This document shows, in pieces, positions 1,928 to 7,805 of a stretch of 30,347 nt of DNA. The stretch comes from a virus. Below the pieces are notes generated by a model. That model was not told where the DNA came from and searched no databases. It saw only the letters and a program-made list of their open reading frames with translations. The position numbers and the translations under genes are program-made. Numbering within the stretch: the first letter of the stretch is position 1; each line of letters opens with the position of its first letter. The DNA lies in the UHGV virus genome UHGV-1790783; one strand, 5' to 3'.

Positions 1928-3487
1928 TTACTCTCTATTTAAAACAGTGAAATCGAATGTGCTGCCAACCGGCAAGACCCCCTCGGCAAACCCAGGCGTC
2001 GTGTCGATAATGTGTTTCCGCTCATATGAATGCGACATGAGGTATTTGTTGCTCACGTCGATGAAGTCGGTAATAAAGCACACGTTAGCCTGATTCTTTT
2101 TGGCTCGAAGACCGCGGCCCACACGTTGACGCATCTCCACTTCGGCTTTGCCGCCACCACCCAGAATCACAGCGCCTACGCTTGGAACGTCGACACCAAC
2201 ATCCAGAATGGTTGAACCAATGAGAACATCTATCTTGCCTACCGCCAGACTATTAAGTTTTGCTTGTCGGGTAGTCTGGTTTGATTCTCCGTAGATGAAA
2301 TCGACCTTGAGGCCACTCTCTTTCATCATTTCCATCAAGATCTGACCATGACGCTTCAGACGAACCAATGTCATACAGTTCAGACCGTGACTTTTGTACA
2401 TTAACGCTTCGCGCACAATAGCCTCGTTGCGGCCCAGATTGTAAACGATGCCTAACTGATAGGCTTTCTGGTAAGCCGTACTCATTCCAACCCGAAAGTT
2501 CAGGTGTTTCGAAGCAAGTTCGGCCCTAATCCGCACCTCGTCTGGAGTGTACGCGATTTTATGATATAGAAAGTAGGGTTTCGCTAAAATACCTCGGTCG
2601 ATCAAATATTTCTCCGTTACTTTTATCTCGATGCGACCCGCAACGGCCATGAGACGCATATTTGCTTCAGTCGAGTCCTTCATGAACGGCGTTGCTGTCA
2701 GCGCCAGACGGTAGTCGGCATTGATGCACAACCGGGCGATGTCGTAGAAGTTAGAACCAGATGATTCGTGTGCCTCTTCCAGAATCAGCAGAGAAACGCT
2801 GGACAGGAAGCGTTTAACCAGTTCCCGGCGCTTCAGGTGGTACTGTTTTTTCTCCGGTGATGCGTCGCGCGGTGGCTCTTCGAGAAAACTGGCCAGGGTC
2901 TGCACCGTGGCAACGTTGATATGGCGCGAGACCTGGAACTCACCCGATCCAATCACCCCAACTCTCTGACCTTTCAGCCACGGCTCGCCATTCTCCGCGC
3001 GGTAGTCGATGGATTTCTGGAAGTTCTCTGCCATCTGGAACATCAGAACCGATCGCGTGGTTAAAAACAGCGTCATACGACCAATGCGAGCAGCAGCCTT
3101 ACACGCTACGTTCGATTTACCGCCACCCGTCGCAATCTGGGCAATCATCATCCCTTCGCGCACCAGTGTTTCCACTGTCTGATCCTGATACGCATAGTCC
3201 GGGTTATACGGGAATGGGTTAACTACCGGGTTCGGCTTGCCCAGCGCGGGGGCTTTTTCCTTGCGCACATGCACGCATTTGATGCCAGCTTTCAGAAGGT
3301 TGGCTGCAACTGGCTTCGCAAACCCAGCCGGGAACGCGTTTTTGCTCCAGTTGAACATCGTGCTGGTTCCTTTCCAGTCCCCAGCCTCCACTTCATAGCT
3401 CAACATCTCCTGAACGAGCCGCTTCACGTTGTCATCAGCGCCAGAAATCAGCGCATTGACTGCATTCGATACAATCCGAACTGTCAT
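1928..3487 (-). CDS. Superfamily-2 DNA/RNA helicase (DEAH-type, ResIII-like phage replication helicase)
   Basis: ORF track 519 aa. Motif I ATGGGKS, motif II LILEEAH, motif III LALTATP, C-terminal motif VI QRVGRGLR. Strong SD (AAGGAAAGAGG) upstream of the ATG at 3487. Confidence 0.9.
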   Translation of the reverse strand: MTVRIVSNAVNALISGADDNVKRLVQEMLSYEVEAGDWKGTSTMFNWSKNAFPAGFAKPVAANLLKAGIKCVHVRKEKAPALGKPNPVVNPFPYNPDYAYQDQTVETLVREGMMIAQIATGGGKSNVACKAAARIGRMTLFLTTRSVLMFQMAENFQKSIDYRAENGEPWLKGQRVGVIGSGEFQVSRHINVATVQTLASFLEEPPRDASPEKKQYHLKRRELVKRFLSSVSLLILEEAHESSGSNFYDIARLCINADYRLALTATPFMKDSTEANMRLMAVAGRIEIKVTEKYLIDRGILAKPYFLYHKIAYTPDEVRIRAELASKHLNFRVGMSTAYQKAYQLGIVYNLGRNEAIVREALMYKSHGLNCMTLVRLKRHGQILMEMMKESGLKVDFIYGESNQTTRQAKLNSLAVGKIDVLIGSTILDVGVDVPSVGAVILGGGGKAEVEMRQRVGRGLRAKKNQANVCFITDFIDVSNKYLMSHSYERKHIIDTTPGFAEGVLPVGSTFDFTVLNRE

Positions 3488-3569
3488 AAACCTCTTTCCT
3501 TCGTGCCTTTTGTATGGTAATTGGCTATTATAGTAAGTAAGTACTTATACAATAGATTGTATCAGAATT
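3488..3569. promoter_or_regulatory. Divergent intergenic control region between helicase (leftward) and ParB-like operon (rightward)
   Basis: 82-bp gap between divergently oriented genes. Contains TAGTAAGTAAGTACTTATAC (3531..3550) with the perfect 10-bp palindrome TAAGTACTTA, and a perfect TATAAT on the minus strand (plus 3527..3532) suitably placed for the helicase. -35 elements are weak. Confidence 0.5.
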
Positions 3570-4250
3570 ATGGATGTGAAAATTACGATTCTGCAGGTGG
3601 AAGTCGCGAACCTGCGTCCGAATCCCTGGAATACCAACTCCGTTGGGGCGCAAAACTTCGAAAAACTGAAAGGCTCTATCGAAAAATTGGGCTTTTTTAA
3701 GCCAATTCTGGCGCGGGAGTTGGACGGGGGCATTTTTGAGATCCTCGGTGGTGAACACCGCTGGCGTGCCGCGATGGAGCAGGGCATTTCAACGGTTCCC
3801 GTCATCTCCGTGGGCAAAATTAACGACCTGGTGGCCAAACAGATGTCCCTCGTCGACAACGAGCGCTACGGCGAAGACGATCAGGTCGCTTTGCAGCGCT
3901 TAATCGAAGAAATCCAGTCTGAAATCGACTACCGGTTGTCCGATATCGCCCCGTATGACGACGAAATGGCGGCAACACTCGCCAAAGCGTCCGTTATCGA
4001 TCTTGAAGCGCTGGAAGCGCTCTCCCGTGGCGATGACGAGCCGGTCGATGAGGACAAACGCGAGAAAACCGAGCGAGTCGGCGCTGAACACCAGACGATG
4101 CGCTTCAAGGTGACGTTTGATGCGTCAGATCGGGTCGCCGACACCATCAAAACCATCATCAAAGAGCAGGGAATCAATACCGGTAACGAAATGGAGAACG
4201 CCGGGGAAGCCCTGGTGTGGCTGGTCGACTACTACAAGGAGCGTATGTAA
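3570..4250 (+). CDS. ParB/sulfiredoxin-like nuclease-domain protein (paralogue 1)
   Basis: ORF track 226 aa. ParB N-terminal motif ILGGEHRWRAA preceded by LRPNPWN. Stop overlaps the next start (TAATG). Confidence 0.8.
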   Translation: MDVKITILQVEVANLRPNPWNTNSVGAQNFEKLKGSIEKLGFFKPILARELDGGIFEILGGEHRWRAAMEQGISTVPVISVGKINDLVAKQMSLVDNERYGEDDQVALQRLIEEIQSEIDYRLSDIAPYDDEMAATLAKASVIDLEALEALSRGDDEPVDEDKREKTERVGAEHQTMRFKVTFDASDRVADTIKTIIKEQGINTGNEMENAGEALVWLVDYYKERM

Positions 4251-4918
4251 TGACCAAAAACTTTGAAATCGTCTATCGAAACCCGGCAGAACTCATCCCG
4301 TATGAGATGAACGCCAAAAAACATGACGAACAGCAGATCCGCGATCTGGCGGCCGCCATCAAAAAGCGCGGTTTTGACCAGCCGATCACGGTCGACAAGC
4401 ACGACGTCATCATTACTGGCCACGGTCGTCGCGAGGCGGCTCTTCTGGCTGGTCTGGAGCGTGTGCCGGTCATTGTTCGCGACGATCTGAGCGAAGAAGA
4501 AGTGAAGGCTAAGCGTCTGGAAGACAACCGCCTGGCCAGTATTGACTACGACGCCATCAAATTGCAGCAGGAACTGGAATCCCTGGTGCTGGGCGACGTC
4601 GAGGTCTTCGGTTTTGAAGAGCGCGAGCTGAACGTGCTTGTCGGCAGCATGACCGAAGAGATGGAAACCGGCTCTCTGGTGCTCGATCTGGGCGAAGAGA
4701 CGGAGCGCCAGAAGGAAGAGCACACCGAGATCAGTCGCGAAGTGGCCTCTGAAGAAGTCCGCGTCATCGACGTATTGGGCTTTAAAACGCTCCCTGCTGG
4801 CTCTGCCATTGTGGTTGGGGATTTGCTTGCCCACATGGAAGAAATCACGGGAGAGAGCGGGGTAGACGCTTTCGTGGCGTATGCGGAGAAAGTTTCTTCT
4901 GGGGAGCTGGCCGCATGA
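4250..4918 (+). CDS. ParB/sulfiredoxin-like nuclease-domain protein (paralogue 2) with acidic C-terminal half
   Basis: In-frame ATG at 4250 inside track ORF 4217..4918. ParB-type motif IITGHGRREAA. Stop overlaps the next gene's ATG (ATGA). Confidence 0.8.
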   Translation: MTKNFEIVYRNPAELIPYEMNAKKHDEQQIRDLAAAIKKRGFDQPITVDKHDVIITGHGRREAALLAGLERVPVIVRDDLSEEEVKAKRLEDNRLASIDYDAIKLQQELESLVLGDVEVFGFEERELNVLVGSMTEEMETGSLVLDLGEETERQKEEHTEISREVASEEVRVIDVLGFKTLPAGSAIVVGDLLAHMEEITGESGVDAFVAYAEKVSSGELAA

Positions 4919-5553
4919 GCAAATACACCATCAACGTATCGTTTCAGACCCGCGTGAACAAAACCACGCGCACGCTGGAGATTGCCGAATCGTTCGGTCT
5001 TGGCCTGGACGAAAAAGAGTGGACGCTTTACGACAATCTGGAGCTGGAAGTGAAGCAGGGCGATGTGGTGTACATCACCGGCCAATCCGGTTCCGGTAAA
5101 TCCGTTGTGCTGCGCGAGCTGCAACGCCAGATGAAGGATGAAGGGCTTTCTGTAGCCTCCATCGATGACTTTGCCTTCGACAATGAGGTTAACGTCATTG
5201 ACCAGCTGGGCAAAACCACCAGCGAAGCGCTGGGGCTGCTGTCTATGGCCGGATTGAATGACGCCTATCTCTTTGTGCGTAAGCCATCCGAGATGTCTGA
5301 CGGCCAGAAATACCGTCTCAAGATCGCCAAGCTGATCGAGTCCGGCGCGAAAGTCTGGGCTGCCGACGAATTTGGCGCTGTTCTCGACCGTGTAACCGCC
5401 CAGGTTGTGGCGTCGAACCTCCAGCGTGCCGCCCGTAAGGTTGGTGCGACGGTAATGGTGGCGACGACCCACGAAGACCTGAAGAACGCGCTGCGCCCGG
5501 ATATGCAGATCACCAAGCACTACAAAGAACGCGTGAAGGTGGAATATGCCTGA
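4915..5553 (+). CDS. Stand-alone ABC-type ATPase (single nucleotide-binding domain)
   Basis: ORF track 212 aa. Walker A GQSGSGKS, Q-loop-like IDQLG, ABC signature-like SDGQKYR, Walker B VWAADEFG, H-loop-like ATTHED. No transmembrane partner in the operon. Confidence 0.75.
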   Translation: MSKYTINVSFQTRVNKTTRTLEIAESFGLGLDEKEWTLYDNLELEVKQGDVVYITGQSGSGKSVVLRELQRQMKDEGLSVASIDDFAFDNEVNVIDQLGKTTSEALGLLSMAGLNDAYLFVRKPSEMSDGQKYRLKIAKLIESGAKVWAADEFGAVLDRVTAQVVASNLQRAARKVGATVMVATTHEDLKNALRPDMQITKHYKERVKVEYA

Positions 5554-5800
5554 TTTGAAGATCGTAGAGCTGAAGCCATCGAAAGAGACTGACAACAACA
5601 ACGTTGAAGTCATCCGCCTGCTGGAAGAAGCACTCCAGTACGCAAGAGAAGGCAAAAGTCAGAGCCTGGCTCTGCTGATGATCGACAACGACGGCAATGT
5701 TATGGATTGCTGGCATAACGGTGGGCGTCCATACGTCATGGTTGGGGCGATGGAATCGCTTCGCCTGGACTTCATCAATGCCAATATCGAGCGTAGGTGA
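5546..5800 (+). CDS. Small hypothetical protein (84 aa)
   Basis: ORF track 84 aa, ATG overlaps the ATPase stop by 8 nt; no recognisable motif. Supported mainly by operon context. Confidence 0.45.
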   Translation: MPDLKIVELKPSKETDNNNVEVIRLLEEALQYAREGKSQSLALLMIDNDGNVMDCWHNGGRPYVMVGAMESLRLDFINANIERR

Positions 5801-5805
5801 TCGAC

Positions 5806-6696
5806 ATGACAGGCATCATCATCAAACGCTACCGCCCGGAAGAGTTCCCGCGTCATCTGGACTTTCTGGAGCGTATGACCGTTACCAAAGGCACGGTTGA
5901 AGACTGGCACGCGCTGAAGTCGCTGCACTACAAGACGGATGGTAAGCCGTTCGCGCCAACGTATTATCGCTGCGAACTGGACGACCGGCTGGTGGGCGTC
6001 GTGGTTATGGCTTACCCGAAACTGCTGCTGGCGCCTCGCCATCGCATGTTTCCTAAGCTGAAGCCAACCACCAATACCACCGTGGCCAACCAGTATTGGG
6101 GCCGGTACGTGAACAACAACTTTGCCGTGATCAGCCGTTCCGTTGTTGACACTCAGTACCGCGGTGTCGGCGTCTCCTATCGAATGATTAACCTGGTTAG
6201 CAGGATGCACGACCGGCCAATCATCGAGATCCAGTCGTCGATGAGCAAATACAACCCGTTCGCCATGAAAGCAGGGTTCCAGTTCATCCGTCCGGAGCGT
6301 CCGAAGAGCTATGAGAGTGCGTTGCGCGTCTTCCAGCGTCATTTCCGTTCTGACCCTGGCGACAACGAAGCGATCGTCAAAGAGCTGTTCGCCATGAGTG
6401 AGTCTCGCCGTCGTCGTGCGCTGCGTGATCTGGTCGCTGACTACCACAAGAACAGTTCCCTGGCCAAAGCCGGGCGTAATCGTGGCACGACGATTCAGGA
6501 CATTGCCGACAGCCTGGTGGACGAGGCCAGCACCGTGAAGCTGCTCAAGGACATTCACAACCTGAGCTTCACGTCTCCGCTGTATGGCGTGTACCGAAAC
6601 CCGGACTTTGGTCGTCAGCTGCCGGACACGCTGCCACTGCTGGCATTCGACAAACAGCCTTTGAATAAACCTCTTGAAATTGCATTACCGGCATAA
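5806..6696 (+). CDS. GNAT-like acyltransferase-fold protein with ~130-aa C-terminal extension
   Basis: ATG at 5806 (AGGTGA SD 8 nt upstream) within track ORF 5797..6696. Segment FAVISRSVVDTQYRGVGVSYRMINLV matches GNAT motif A (R/Q-x-x-G-x-G/A after a hydrophobic strand). Motif-level inference only. Confidence 0.55.
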   Translation: MTGIIIKRYRPEEFPRHLDFLERMTVTKGTVEDWHALKSLHYKTDGKPFAPTYYRCELDDRLVGVVVMAYPKLLLAPRHRMFPKLKPTTNTTVANQYWGRYVNNNFAVISRSVVDTQYRGVGVSYRMINLVSRMHDRPIIEIQSSMSKYNPFAMKAGFQFIRPERPKSYESALRVFQRHFRSDPGDNEAIVKELFAMSESRRRRALRDLVADYHKNSSLAKAGRNRGTTIQDIADSLVDEASTVKLLKDIHNLSFTSPLYGVYRNPDFGRQLPDTLPLLAFDKQPLNKPLEIALPA

Positions 6697-6705
6697 GGAT
6701 TTGCC

Positions 6706-6972
6706 ATGACGTTGACCGACAAACAAAAAGACATCATCAAAACCATCAATTTAGGCCATGAGCGTGGGCATCTGCTCGATCTGGACGAGCTGCTTGAAGT
6801 GCTGCCGTACAAAACGACCAAACAGAGTATGCAGTTCTCTATCCGCGCACTGGTGAAAAAGGGGCTGGTGGAGAAAGGAATGTGCCGCCAGCGCGGTGAT
6901 TCCGGCTACCACCGTCGCACGCTGGGACTGACCACGTTAGGTCGTGCCAGAGCCAAATTACTGGTGATGTAA
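6706..6972 (+). CDS. Small basic protein, putative winged-helix DNA-binding regulator
   Basis: ORF track 88 aa, SD TAAGGA upstream. Lys/Arg-rich with a helix-turn-helix-like segment (TTKQSMQFSIRALVKKGLVEK). Low-specificity inference. Confidence 0.45.
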   Translation: MTLTDKQKDIIKTINLGHERGHLLDLDELLEVLPYKTTKQSMQFSIRALVKKGLVEKGMCRQRGDSGYHRRTLGLTTLGRARAKLLVM

Positions 6973-6997
6973 GTCGGTCTGGGAGCCAGTTTGAGAG

Positions 6998-7048
6998 CCT
7001 GCTTCCGTATATATAAATAGTGACTTATTAAATATATACGGAGGCAGG
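6998..7048. repeat. Large imperfect inverted repeat (17-bp arms, 17-nt AT-rich loop) between the accessory operon and terS
   Basis: Seen in sequence: CCTGCTTCCGTATATAT ... ATATATACGGAGGCAGG, one mismatch that is a G-U pair in RNA. No adjacent T-tract, so not a classic terminator. Confidence 0.7.
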
Positions 7049-7163
7049 TTCTGAATACTCCCCAGCCCGGTTTTAAACACCCAGAAAACAAATTGGTTAG
7101 GCACTGAATTAAACAAGTTGTTTAGGAGCGCAAGGATGCGCTCTGAGTGTTTTAGAGGGATCT

Positions 7164-7805
7164 ATGACTGTAGAAAAAGACGAGAGCAAAACTCGCCTGA
7201 CACCAGCTGAGTGGGCAGAAGCCGAAGCGAAGTGGACTTCCGGCGAATACACACTCTCCAGGCTGGAGGAAGAGTACGGCATTCGTCGTGAAACGCTCTC
7301 CAGACATTTCAAAAAGCGTGGATTAGAGAAAGGCGCGGACTCCGTTGGGAAGATGGTGCGCGAGTCGCTCAAATCCGACGCAGAGCTGCGTGCGAAGGCG
7401 CGTGCAGAGAAAATCGAAGAGCGCCGGACTCGTTACGACGATTGGGCGTTCGCACTCGGTCGTATGGTGATGCATGAGGTGGCCACAGCCAAGAAGGACG
7501 GCAGGCCACTGGCAGCCATCGAAGATGACCTGAAGAGTCTCCAGCGTGCCAGCGGCACACTCGCTAAGTGCTTCGAAATATCGTCGAAAGCGCTCGGTAT
7601 GGATCGCGTGGAGAACGAGGACGACGAAATCCCGAACCTGGTATTTGGCGAACTTACGCCTTCCCAGGTGGCGCAGCTGCGTAAGGAAGATGATGAGCCG
7701 GATCTGATTGATGACGATCTGCTTGAGTCACTCGAAGAGGAAGCACTGAGCGAAGCTGAGGGCGATTCTGAAGCGTCTGGTGATGAAAGTGATGGGAGCG
7801 TCTGA
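7164..7805 (+). CDS. terS: Terminase small subunit (putative)
   Basis: ORF track 213 aa, immediately upstream of and coupled to the large terminase; HTH-like N-terminus, highly acidic C-terminus; SD AGAGGGA. Call by position and composition. Confidence 0.65.
   Translation: MTVEKDESKTRLTPAEWAEAEAKWTSGEYTLSRLEEEYGIRRETLSRHFKKRGLEKGADSVGKMVRESLKSDAELRAKARAEKIEERRTRYDDWAFALGRMVMHEVATAKKDGRPLAAIEDDLKSLQRASGTLAKCFEISSKALGMDRVENEDDEIPNLVFGELTPSQVAQLRKEDDEPDLIDDDLLESLEEEALSEAEGDSEASGDESDGSV

Follow-up and report, generated by a model that had tools for sequence, protein, structure and literature searches.

Genes for ParB-like proteins are readily annotated as partition genes, but what do two of them do when they stand in tandem at the head of an operon with no partition apparatus nearby? 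This question is raised by a stretch of virus DNA of 30,347 nucleotides (the window), which belongs to an SSU5-like phage-plasmid (98.5% identity). The two genes are here called ParB1 and ParB2.

The ParB1/ParB2 pair

According to the original prediction, both products are diverged paralogues related to ParB and sulfiredoxin, and this was borne out. Both proteins matched PF02195 (ParB_N) above its gathering score of 26.3 bits, ParB1 with 51.8 bits (E 9e-14) and ParB2 with 35.7 bits (E 9e-9). They are 27% identical and collinear over their full length, and the motifs ILGGEHRWRAA (ParB1) and IITGHGRREAA (ParB2) align to Box II (GERRxRAA) of the Spo0J, ParB, and Noc structures. Further matches were obtained for ParB1 with phrog_723 (E 2e-85) and Spo0J (1vz0, E 1e-10), and for ParB2 with phrog_930 (E 3e-115) and phrog_498 (ParB-MTase, E 2e-32). 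Judged by these profile matches, the N-domain of ParB1 has a ParB fold. For ParB2, the same fold is assigned on the basis of an AF2 model (pLDDT 77), in which residues 1-95 are confident and the acidic region 100-170 is of low confidence. The best Foldseek match of this model was the ParB-CDP structure 6sdk (E 3.8e-7); other matches were nucleotide-bound Noc and KorB (8qa8, 8qa9), and sulfiredoxin.

We compared both proteins with the canonical CTP motifs (Box I QPR, Box II GERRxR, Box III ENxxR). The corresponding motifs are NTN, GEHRWR, and DNER(YG) in ParB1, and NAK(KH), GHGRRE, and DNR in ParB2. These variant residues are conserved within each of the two families, and in ParB2 the residues N21, G57, R60, D92, and N93 are invariant. 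The glutamate of Box II is still present in ParB1 (GEHR) but replaced in ParB2 (GHGR). This suggests that the pair may consist of one hydrolysis-competent subunit (ParB1) and one degenerate regulatory subunit (ParB2). Nucleotide binding by the ParB fold, and its specificity, are unpredictable from sequence (PMC12704722).

The start of ParB2 at the ATG at 4250 is preceded by an AAGGAG Shine-Dalgarno sequence 8 nt upstream, and the orthologue alignments start at this codon rather than at an upstream GTG (4217). This ATG and the TAA stop codon of ParB1 overlap by one base (gtaATGacc). The TAATG overlap, from which a heteromeric complex had been proposed, is thus real in the window, but it is weak evidence for a heteromer, since no more than 15 of the 32 related loci show such stop/start coupling. 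In the remaining 17, the distance between the two genes is 150-930 nt, sometimes with small genes in between. A strongly acidic C-terminal half had been described for the second protein. It is indeed present in ParB2, but not as a distinguishing feature: from residue 101 to the end the net charge is -21 in ParB2 and -17 in ParB1, and the acidic C-terminal half is found in 33 of 33 orthologues of either protein. Both have a pI of about 4.5.

Pfam detected ParB_N as the sole domain of both proteins, with neither HTH_ParB nor an MTase family, and no recognisable DNA-binding domain was found by Pfam or in the ParB2 model. Likewise, PADLOC gave no defence-system assignment beyond an MTase N-domain similarity. 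We also considered a ribbon-helix-helix fold for the C-terminus, where the tails (MRFKV...NAGDALV in ParB1, GFK...TG..G.DAF in ParB2) resembled beta-alpha-alpha modules. The two tails are weakly in register (hhalign E 0.012, probability 3.5%), profile searches against Pfam and PDB returned no match, and the ParB2 model shows helices only. Therefore, a ribbon-helix-helix fold is not claimed.

Operon context and conservation

ParB1 and ParB2 open an operon of six translationally coupled genes (Table 1). That the pair heads an operon encoding a split ABC-GNAT enzyme had been missed by the original prediction. Consecutive starts and stops between 3570 and 6972 overlap or abut, including the start of the ABC ATPase gene, which overlaps the ParB2 stop codon (ATGA), and no sigma-70-like promoter was found inside this region. 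The downstream hairpin is kept in a Klebsiella relative and is likely the 3' boundary of the operon, which ends with the gene for the 88-aa protein.

Table 1. Features of the ParB1/ParB2 locus; positions refer to the window.
Feature	Position	Strand	Description
UvsW/DEAD-like helicase, divergent neighbour	1928..3487	-	PF00270, PF04851, PF00271
ParB1, 226 aa	3570..4250	+	ParB N-domain (by profile matches), acidic middle, conserved C-terminal module (MRFKV...NAGEALV)
ParB2, 222 aa	4250..4918	+	ParB N-domain (by model), acidic low-confidence helical middle, confident C-terminal helical domain
Stand-alone ABC-type ATPase	4915..5553	+	PF00005 (E 5e-13); Walker A GQSGSGKS, signature MSDGQ, Walker B DEF, H-loop
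84-aa ORF	5546..5800	+	phrog_796 (E 1e-46)
GNAT-fold acyltransferase-like protein	5797..6696	+	GNAT core (~residues 1-165) with R-G-V-G motif A, helical C-terminal domain
88-aa protein, possible winged helix	6706..6972	+	phrog_900 (E 5e-49)
Imperfect palindrome	6991..7055	none	24-nt arms, 17-nt loop; between operon and terminase genes
Terminator-like GC-rich hairpin with T-rich tail	7125..7144	+	20 nt upstream of TerS-like gene

The enzymatic core of the operon is a split ABC-ATPase and GNAT acyltransferase. In ABC-GNAT fusions, the N-terminal half is the counterpart (orthologue) of the ABC gene, whose product is 49% identical to residues 2-214 of the fusion P0420 (E 3e-67), and the C-terminal half is that of the GNAT gene. 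By these sequence matches, the two genes are the split equivalent of the fused proteins (COG2401, 'ABC-type ATPase fused to acetyltransferase'). The true start of the GNAT gene may be an ATG at 5806. ABC-GNAT fusions occur in phage DNA-metabolism contexts, and some are joined to a phage DNA polymerase (PolB). Proteins and small molecules are further substrates of GNATs. The first prediction of the ABC-GNAT system was reportedly made by Iyer et al. in 2013. As cited in PMC7824862, a DNA base is the predicted acylation target of an ABC ATPase-GNAT system (Iyer/Aravind). Our literature search found no work on COG2401, and neither a report of modified DNA in SSU5-like phages nor a link between SSU5 and DNA modification. 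We also inspected 83 loci of ABC-GNAT fusions in other viruses (887 kb) and found no ParB-domain ORF within ~8 kb, using an HMM that gave 65 matches in the loci of the lineage studied here. In general, therefore, ABC-GNAT enzymes can do without a ParB protein.

This lineage comprises ~100-kb phages and phage-plasmids, with relatives of ~100-120 kb in the nickie, RHEph10, and ANB28 groups; copies of the module also lie on chromosome-sized contigs (L087, L118). Its diversity was recovered by the genome scan, whereas a scan of viral contigs with the GNAT alignment gave near-identical SSU5-like loci for all of the best 80 matches. The gene order helicase (minus strand), ParB1, ParB2, ABC, GNAT, 88-aa gene, TerS, TerL was found in all 32 loci, with GNAT identities down to 36% and with the helicase gene always head-to-head with ParB1. 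Orthologues of both ParB1 and ParB2 are present in every one of them (32/32). The paralogue pair is thus ancient and always kept, and the expectation that the two proteins are not redundant held for this reason. The 84-aa ORF was detected in 99%-identical loci only, and its slot is variable across the lineage; the 88-aa gene is the one most closely coupled to the GNAT gene, with a gap of at most 35 nt in most loci. The 88-aa protein gave weak matches to LexA_DNA_bind (E 0.14) and to CARF-associated wHTH domains. In relatives, Tad2-like small genes of the anti-defence type are inserted in the same operon.

We then compared the evolutionary distances of the proteins. After removal of the phylogenetic background, the partial r was 0.40 for ParB1-ParB2, 0.36 for ParB2-GNAT, and 0.27 for ParB1-GNAT, relative to 0.53 for the ABC-GNAT control and about zero for the ParB proteins with the ABC ATPase, all of these being mirror-tree values with no significance test attached. 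A ParB1/ParB2 heteromer is plausible in view of the constant retention of both proteins, the apparent homology of their C-terminal domains, and a modest co-variation of their distances. Since the whole region including the helicase, terminase, and portal genes is syntenic in this lineage, adjacency by itself does not tell whether the genes are functionally linked or were only inherited together.

The palindrome downstream of the operon had been suggested as a cognate ParB site. It is real, unique in the 30-kb window, and conserved in close relatives, and is a possible cos/pac or protein-binding site. The linear SSU5 record ends inside it at about window position 7031, and the Cyrano record ends in its loop. 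A packaging site is therefore no less likely than a ParB site.

Possible functions of the pair

The partition reading takes ParB1 and ParB2 as centromere-binding proteins that serve the plasmid state of the phage-plasmid together with a distant ParA. The element is indeed a phage-plasmid, and both genes are annotated as partition proteins in public records. Nevertheless, the TIGR00180 scores of 39.4 and 46.9 bits stay below the cut-off of 58.45, and neither protein has an HTH. The N-terminal ParA-activating motif [LFI]G[KR]G[LFI] (as defined in PMC12704722) is absent from all orthologues (0/33 for ParB1, 0/33 for ParB2). The immediate neighbours of the pair are the helicase and ABC ATPase genes, with no adjacent parA. 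The SSU5 ParA is encoded ~27 kb away and is directly followed by a small 96-aa gene, which may be the cognate type Ib partner. Moreover, 19 cultured phages of Rhizobium, Pseudomonas, Stenotrophomonas, and Xanthomonas carry ParB1, ParB2, and GNAT and show no detectable homologue of the SSU5 ParA; the pair thus occurs independently of ParA. The copies on chromosome-sized contigs also argue against a partition role. Ordinary partition was rejected on the TIGR00180 scores, the distant ParA, the absent motif, and the ParA-less phages. This reading is already largely refuted and, in our view, extremely improbable. Ordinary partition proteins with a nearby ParA, which would have refuted the original prediction, are thus not what was found, and the data indicate that the routine partition annotation of both 'ParB' genes is wrong.

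Three further explanations have to be weighed. The two proteins might be stand-alone NTP-regulated nucleases or NTPases of the ParB/Srx type, or acidic decoys, which act in host takeover or counter-defence independently of ABC-GNAT by nicking or degrading host or competitor DNA or by depleting nucleotides, and merely share the operon. Non-specific nicking, DNase, or NTPase activity is indeed described for ParB-methylase fusions, Osa, and other orphan ParBs (PMC5512222; PMC12839542), and ParB2 belongs to a GHGR-type clade of methylase-fused ParB domains. Strongly acidic tails would suit protein or DNA-mimic interactions, and this explanation is also consistent with ABC-GNAT fusions that have no ParB neighbour and with the anti-defence-type genes inserted in the operon of relatives. 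It leaves unexplained why in each of the 32 loci two diverged paralogues occur together and immediately precede ABC-GNAT, and why the ParBs co-vary with GNAT; we consider it unlikely. An accessory role in DNA packaging, in which the pair recognises or processes a packaging site such as the palindrome together with the TerS-like protein and TerL, would fit the observations that TerS and TerL directly follow the operon in every locus and that two linear phage genome records end at the palindrome. Furthermore, a ParB2-like gene comes first in the records of the unrelated phages Vibrio X29, Lactobacillus c5, and Rhodobacter RcKai, the usual place of a terminase gene. On the other hand, a gap of 190 bp and the terminator-like hairpin lie between the operon and TerS, and the phages with the next-closest TerL (~40% identity; Vibrio phages of 36-37 kb) list the terminase at the record start and have no such module. 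The ParBs have no detected DNA-binding domain, and the palindrome is single-copy and reduced to a half-site in the Xenorhabdus and Morganella relatives, so that a packaging role appears quite unlikely. Finally, the proteins could be KorB-like NTP-switch regulators of the flanking helicase gene, the operon, or late genes, acting through the divergent intergenic region or the palindrome. The 82-bp intergenic region contains short TTGTAT/ATACAA repeats, the ParB2 model also matches KorB (8qa8, 8qa9), and DndB acts as a repressor that depends on ATP according to PMC12704722. But a regulator of this kind would be strongly acidic and have no HTH or other DNA-binding domain, the ribbon-helix-helix alternative finding no support in profile searches, and the need for two paralogues would be unexplained. 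We regard this as very unlikely.

In the best reading of the sequence evidence, the pair are two orphan proteins of the ParB fold, probably nucleotide-binding, that have lost the partition apparatus (HTH, ParA-binding motif, ParA partner). As to their function, we favour, with a probability of about 0.4, that they are NTP-binding accessory or loading subunits of a predicted ABC-GNAT DNA-modification module. The pair shares its operon with ABC and GNAT in all 32 loci, DNA as the target of the GNAT being a prediction. The co-variation of both ParBs with GNAT and the Tad2-like genes inserted in relatives speak for this role; the lack of a ParB gene around the 83 fusion loci and the near-zero co-variation with the ABC ATPase speak against it. 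The ABC-GNAT enzyme would act on phage DNA and introduce an acyl-type base modification, as predicted in the literature. Both ParBs would be its NTP-gated accessory subunits, probably forming a ParB1/ParB2 hetero-oligomer held together by homologous C-terminal domains, and would load, activate, or time ABC-GNAT on replicating phage DNA before packaging, much as phage thymine dioxygenases are activated by ParB-like proteins and DpdA is assisted by DpdB. Because both proteins are acidic and have no recognisable DNA-binding domain, a role as clamp or loader is not obvious. A more specific and only tentative version, which we think has a small chance of being correct in this form, is an asymmetric heterodimeric ParB-fold NTP switch, with ParB1 hydrolysis-competent and ParB2 degenerate, that licenses or loads the split ABC-GNAT DNA acyltransferase on replicating phage DNA.

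SSU5-like phage-plasmids are common in clinical Enterobacteriaceae, and two SSU5-like records carry resistance-gene labels (CTX-M-15 in pECOH89 and a KPC-named Klebsiella record). Should a new DNA modification be introduced by the operon, it would account for some of their host range and restriction evasion, and would be, after Mom, a further and chemically new (acyl) mark on phage DNA. The two proteins would then also be the first naturally heteromeric pair of the ParB-CTPase fold without a DNA-binding domain. Should the heterodimeric switch be true, an undescribed acylated base would be expected in the genomes of the SSU5-like phage-plasmids and of the nickie, RHEph10, and ANB28 groups, protecting them from restriction. 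The module is present in the cultured phages SSU5, Cyrano, nickie, and RHEph10, so that the case is open to direct tests.

Comparison with known systems

The N-domain fold and most motif positions are shared with the canonical CTP clamps ParB, Spo0J, Noc, and KorB (PDB matches 6sdk, 7bnr, 7nfu, 8qa9, 1vz0), and ParB1 has an S, a G, an E, the second R of Box II, and the N of Box III in common with canonical ParB. In contrast to these clamps, the pair has no HTH, no ParA-binding motif, no adjacent ParA, and, within the 30-kb window, no repeated parS-like sites; ParB2 lacks the Box II glutamate, and both proteins are acidic and score below the TIGR00180 cut-off.

Closer parallels are found among partners of DNA-modifying enzymes. 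The ParB-like activators of phage thymine dioxygenases (5mYOX) consist of an NBD and a CTD and have no DNA-binding domain (PMC13229309). Such a 5mYOX-associated ParB is likewise an orphan phage ParB fold that adjoins a DNA-modifying enzyme, and its layout, with an N-terminal nucleotide-binding domain, a helical or unstructured middle, and a C-terminal domain, is that predicted by the ParB2 model. Their partner is an Fe/2OG dioxygenase, whereas here it would be the split ABC-GNAT. Moreover, there are two diverged paralogues here instead of one, and Box I and Box II are more diverged (GEHR, GHGR). Outside the lineage, ParB2 is closest in sequence to the ParB-DNA methyltransferase fusions of phages (phrog_498; PADLOC MTase_II PDLC03229, E 6.5e-18), with whose N-termini, including those of Streptococcus phage methylases, ParB2 shares 35-46% identity over ~125-140 residues. 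These fusions couple a ParB fold to a DNA-modifying activity, but the proteins described here are free-standing and duplicated, without an MTase domain and with an acidic middle and C-terminal domain of their own. The ParB-like ATPase DpdB assists DpdA in the Dpd 7-deazaguanine DNA modification (PMC12839542). By analogy of role, DpdB and DndB are comparable as ParB-fold NTPases that are accessory or regulatory parts of DNA-modification machineries, although their partners are the TGT-like DpdA and DndACDE and not ABC-GNAT. The Stenotrophomonas phages DLP3 and DLP5 also combine ParB-domain proteins with restriction-resistant DNA. They belong to a different lineage and were set aside because their ParB has a different architecture (445 aa, adjoining the portal gene) and because they have no match to this GNAT.

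With the ABC-GNAT fusions, finally, the operon shares the ABC NBD, the GNAT fold, and the phage DNA-metabolism context, but encodes the enzyme in two genes instead of one, preceded by the two ParB paralogues.

A tandem pair of diverged ParB-like genes

By its sequence, the window represents an SSU5-like phage-plasmid: over positions 3400-7200 it shares 98.5% identity with Salmonella phage SSU5 and 83-86% with phage-plasmids from Klebsiella and Escherichia. The two genes that had been predicted to be diverged tandem ParB paralogues both exceed the gathering score of Pfam ParB_N (E 9e-14 for ParB1, the upstream gene; 9e-9 for ParB2). Their products are 27% identical and collinear end to end, and they fall into separate PHROG families (723 and 930). 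The motifs cited in the original prediction align with Box II of the nucleotide pocket in solved ParB, Spo0J and Noc proteins. The proposed stop/start overlap is likewise present in the window, where the TAA of ParB1 and the ATG of ParB2 share one base, with AAGGAG located 8 nt upstream and the start at 4250 borne out by orthologue alignments. It is not general, however: among related loci sharing the helicase-ParB1-ParB2-ABC-GNAT-terminase order (the lineage), the gap is at most 25 nt in 15 loci but 150-930 nt in 17. The acidic C-terminal half ascribed to ParB2 (net -21) is real but not confined to it; ParB1 has one as well (net -17), as does every orthologue.

The ParB1 pocket is mostly canonical, with the Ser and Gly of SIxxxG, the Glu and second Arg of Box II (GEHR) and the Asn of Box III (DNER). 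Box I (PNPWNTN) carries Asn in place of Gln and Arg, and these variant residues are at least 90% conserved among 33 orthologues. In ParB2 the motifs NAKxH, GHGR and DNR are invariant or almost so across 46 homologues; with GHGR, the Box II glutamate is missing. In the AlphaFold model of ParB2 (pLDDT 77), a confident N-domain (residues 1-95) is followed by an acidic, low-confidence middle with helical and disordered parts (100-170), and residues 172-221 form a C-terminal helical module that is again modelled with confidence; the closest structures to the model are nucleotide-bound ParB, Noc and KorB. A ribbon-helix-helix fold for the conserved C-terminal modules of both proteins was unsupported by our searches.

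Features of the ParB-GNAT region (window positions)
Feature	Position	Description
ParB1	3570-4250	226 aa; co-directional with ParB2
ParB2	4250-4918	222 aa; co-directional with ParB1
ABC-type ATPase	4915-5553	same run as the ParB pair
84-aa ORF		between the ABC-type ATPase and 299-aa genes
GNAT protein	5797-6696	299 aa; acyltransferase-like; same run as the ParB pair
88-aa protein	6706-6972	last gene of the run
Imperfect inverted repeat	6991-7055	24-nt arms, 88% complementary, 17-nt loop; between operon and TerS-like gene
Terminator-like hairpin	7125-7144	GC, T-rich tail; 20 nt upstream of TerS-like start codon

The six genes form one run in which stops and starts overlap or abut, and no sigma-70-like promoter was found within it. 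A UvsW/DEAD-like helicase gene lies upstream of ParB1 in divergent orientation. The 82-bp region between them (3488-3569) contains TTGTAT at ~3510 and ~3558 and its complement ATACAA at ~3547 and lacks a sigma-70 consensus promoter; the repeats could be an operator or a phage-specific promoter. The terminator-like hairpin and a 190-bp gap separate the 88-aa gene from the genes for the TerS-like protein, TerL and portal. This hairpin, also present in a Klebsiella relative, may mark the end of the operon or control read-through into the late genes. The GNAT gene and the gene following it are the tightest-coupled pair of the module (gap of at most 35 nt in most lineage loci). A counterpart of the 88-aa gene was detected in most related loci; its product gave weak winged-helix matches and could be a DNA-recognition partner of GNAT.

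Conservation and the question of partition

A scan with the GNAT alignment, taking one genome per species, yielded 30 loci, and four more were added from distant homologues. Many are alpha-, beta- or gammaproteobacterial contigs of ~100-120 kb, and a few are chromosome-sized. The order helicase (minus strand), ParB1, ParB2, ABC, GNAT, small gene, TerS, TerL, portal was found in 32/32 loci with enough flank, all of which encode clear orthologues of both ParB1 and ParB2 (29-38% identity). Therefore, the duplication is old and neither copy is dispensable. Among cultured phages, the records that carry GNAT and those that carry full-length ParB1 are the same 31, comprising SSU5-like elements and Rhizobium RHEph10-like, Pseudomonas nickie-like, Stenotrophomonas and Xanthomonas phages.

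In Burkholderia and metagenomic relatives, genes for Tad2-like (PF11195, an anti-Thoeris family) and thioredoxin proteins are inserted among the module genes (L003 7347-7823, L004 9853-10646); the operon is thus a hot spot for small accessory genes, possibly with anti-defence roles. Contigs labelled 'Bacillota MAG' and 'Candidatus Fimivivens MAG' share 90-99% identity with the enterobacterial element across the matched GNAT gene and have probably been mis-binned; across that gene, a 108-kb contig of Yersinia pestis NCTC5923 shows 99% identity (L089, L092 and L090 for these contigs).

Both genes are annotated as partition genes in public records, and the original prediction had named ordinary partition proteins with a nearby ParA gene as the case against it. 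Both proteins score under the cut-off of the partition family TIGR00180. A Pfam search found no HTH domain in either, and the ParA-activating motif occurs in 0/33 ParB1 and 0/33 ParB2 orthologues. Outside the window, at 30497-31521 of the SSU5 record NC_018843.1 and ~27 kb from the pair, a ParA-like gene (221 aa) precedes one of 96 aa in a type Ib-like layout; this is the candidate for the actual plasmid-partition locus of this element type. No homologue of this ParA was detected in 19 Rhizobium, Pseudomonas, Stenotrophomonas and Xanthomonas phages that keep the ParB pair. Taken together, the relatives with no detected homologue of this ParA, the missing motif and HTH domain and the sub-threshold scores all but exclude an ordinary partition role, and the counter-case named in the original prediction does not hold. 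We therefore consider such a role very improbable and the public annotation probably wrong.

A split ABC-GNAT enzyme

A profile search of 1.8 billion representatives returned 990 relatives of the GNAT protein. An ABC ATPase domain lies directly N-terminal to the GNAT region in 62 of the 66 long relatives, many of which were then recognised by Pfam GNAT models. Identity between the ABC ATPase of the window and the N-terminal half of one of these fusions is 49% (E 3e-67), and the GNAT protein of the window is collinear with the C-terminal half of the same fusion. Therefore, the window encodes a split ABC-GNAT enzyme. According to a comparative-genomics study (PMC7824862), a GNAT coupled to an ABC ATPase had been predicted to carry out an acyl-type modification, as yet uncharacterised, of a DNA base; we found no experimental characterisation of the system in the literature.

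Elsewhere, ABC-GNAT fusions reside in phage replication modules. A recurrent 1260-aa protein (P0432; L122, L123 6001-9783) joins a family-B DNA polymerase (exonuclease and polymerase) to an ABC ATPase and a GNAT-like domain, and occurs on metagenomic phage contigs beside Prim-Pol, RecA and RNA ligase genes. In another fusion (P0407) the ABC domain contains a Hint/LAGLIDADG intein, and two relatives have TerL ORFs of roughly double the usual length (L093 8944-11193; L101 9024-11540); in these elements, ATPase genes seem to be a target for inteins.

Possible role of the ParB pair

Our preferred reading, to which we assign a probability of roughly 0.4, is that the pair are NTP-binding accessory subunits which, before packaging, would load the split ABC-GNAT enzyme onto phage DNA, its putative substrate, activate it there or set its timing. 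ParB1 and ParB2 might assemble into a hetero-oligomer in which one nucleotide site is competent and the other degenerate. The shared operon and the invariant adjacency across the lineage point to such a link, but adjacency alone is weak evidence because the whole region is syntenic. Outside the lineage, ParB2 is most closely related to the ParB domains of fusions with phage DNA methyltransferases. Phage thymine dioxygenases have ParB-fold activators that lack a DNA-binding domain (PMC13229309), and other ParB-fold proteins assist DpdA (PMC12839542) or the Dnd system (PMC12704722). After removal of shared phylogeny, residual co-variation was modest (ParB1-ParB2 0.40, ParB2-GNAT 0.36, ParB1-GNAT 0.27, against 0.53 for ABC-GNAT as positive control), these mirror-tree values being descriptive only.

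At 83 fused ABC-GNAT loci of other viruses (887 kb), the ParB HMM that found 65 ORFs in lineage loci found none; ParB is therefore a lineage-specific addition and not a general ABC-GNAT partner. A simple DNA-clamp model is uncertain, because both proteins are acidic and have no DNA-binding domain. That they are instead independent ParB-type nickases, NTPases or acidic decoys, serving host takeover or counter-defence, appears unlikely. Regulators resembling KorB, one of the closest structures to the ParB2 model, are a still more doubtful alternative for proteins without an HTH domain.

The inverted repeat, originally suggested as a cognate ParB site, is real and occurs once in the window. Close relatives including Klebsiella keep it, and those from Xenorhabdus and Morganella have only a half-site. 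The linear GenBank records of the cultured phages SSU5 and Cyrano each terminate within its loop, and a packaging or terminus site, possibly cos or pac, is a likelier reading than a parS-like one. A packaging accessory acting there is an improbable role for the pair.

Both genes are in public records and the ABC-GNAT prediction is published. In its proposed mode of action the pair most resembles the ParB-fold partners recently reported for DNA-modifying enzymes. Unlike these, ParB1 and ParB2 are an obligatorily retained pair of diverged paralogues, bear acidic tails and accompany a split ABC-GNAT enzyme.
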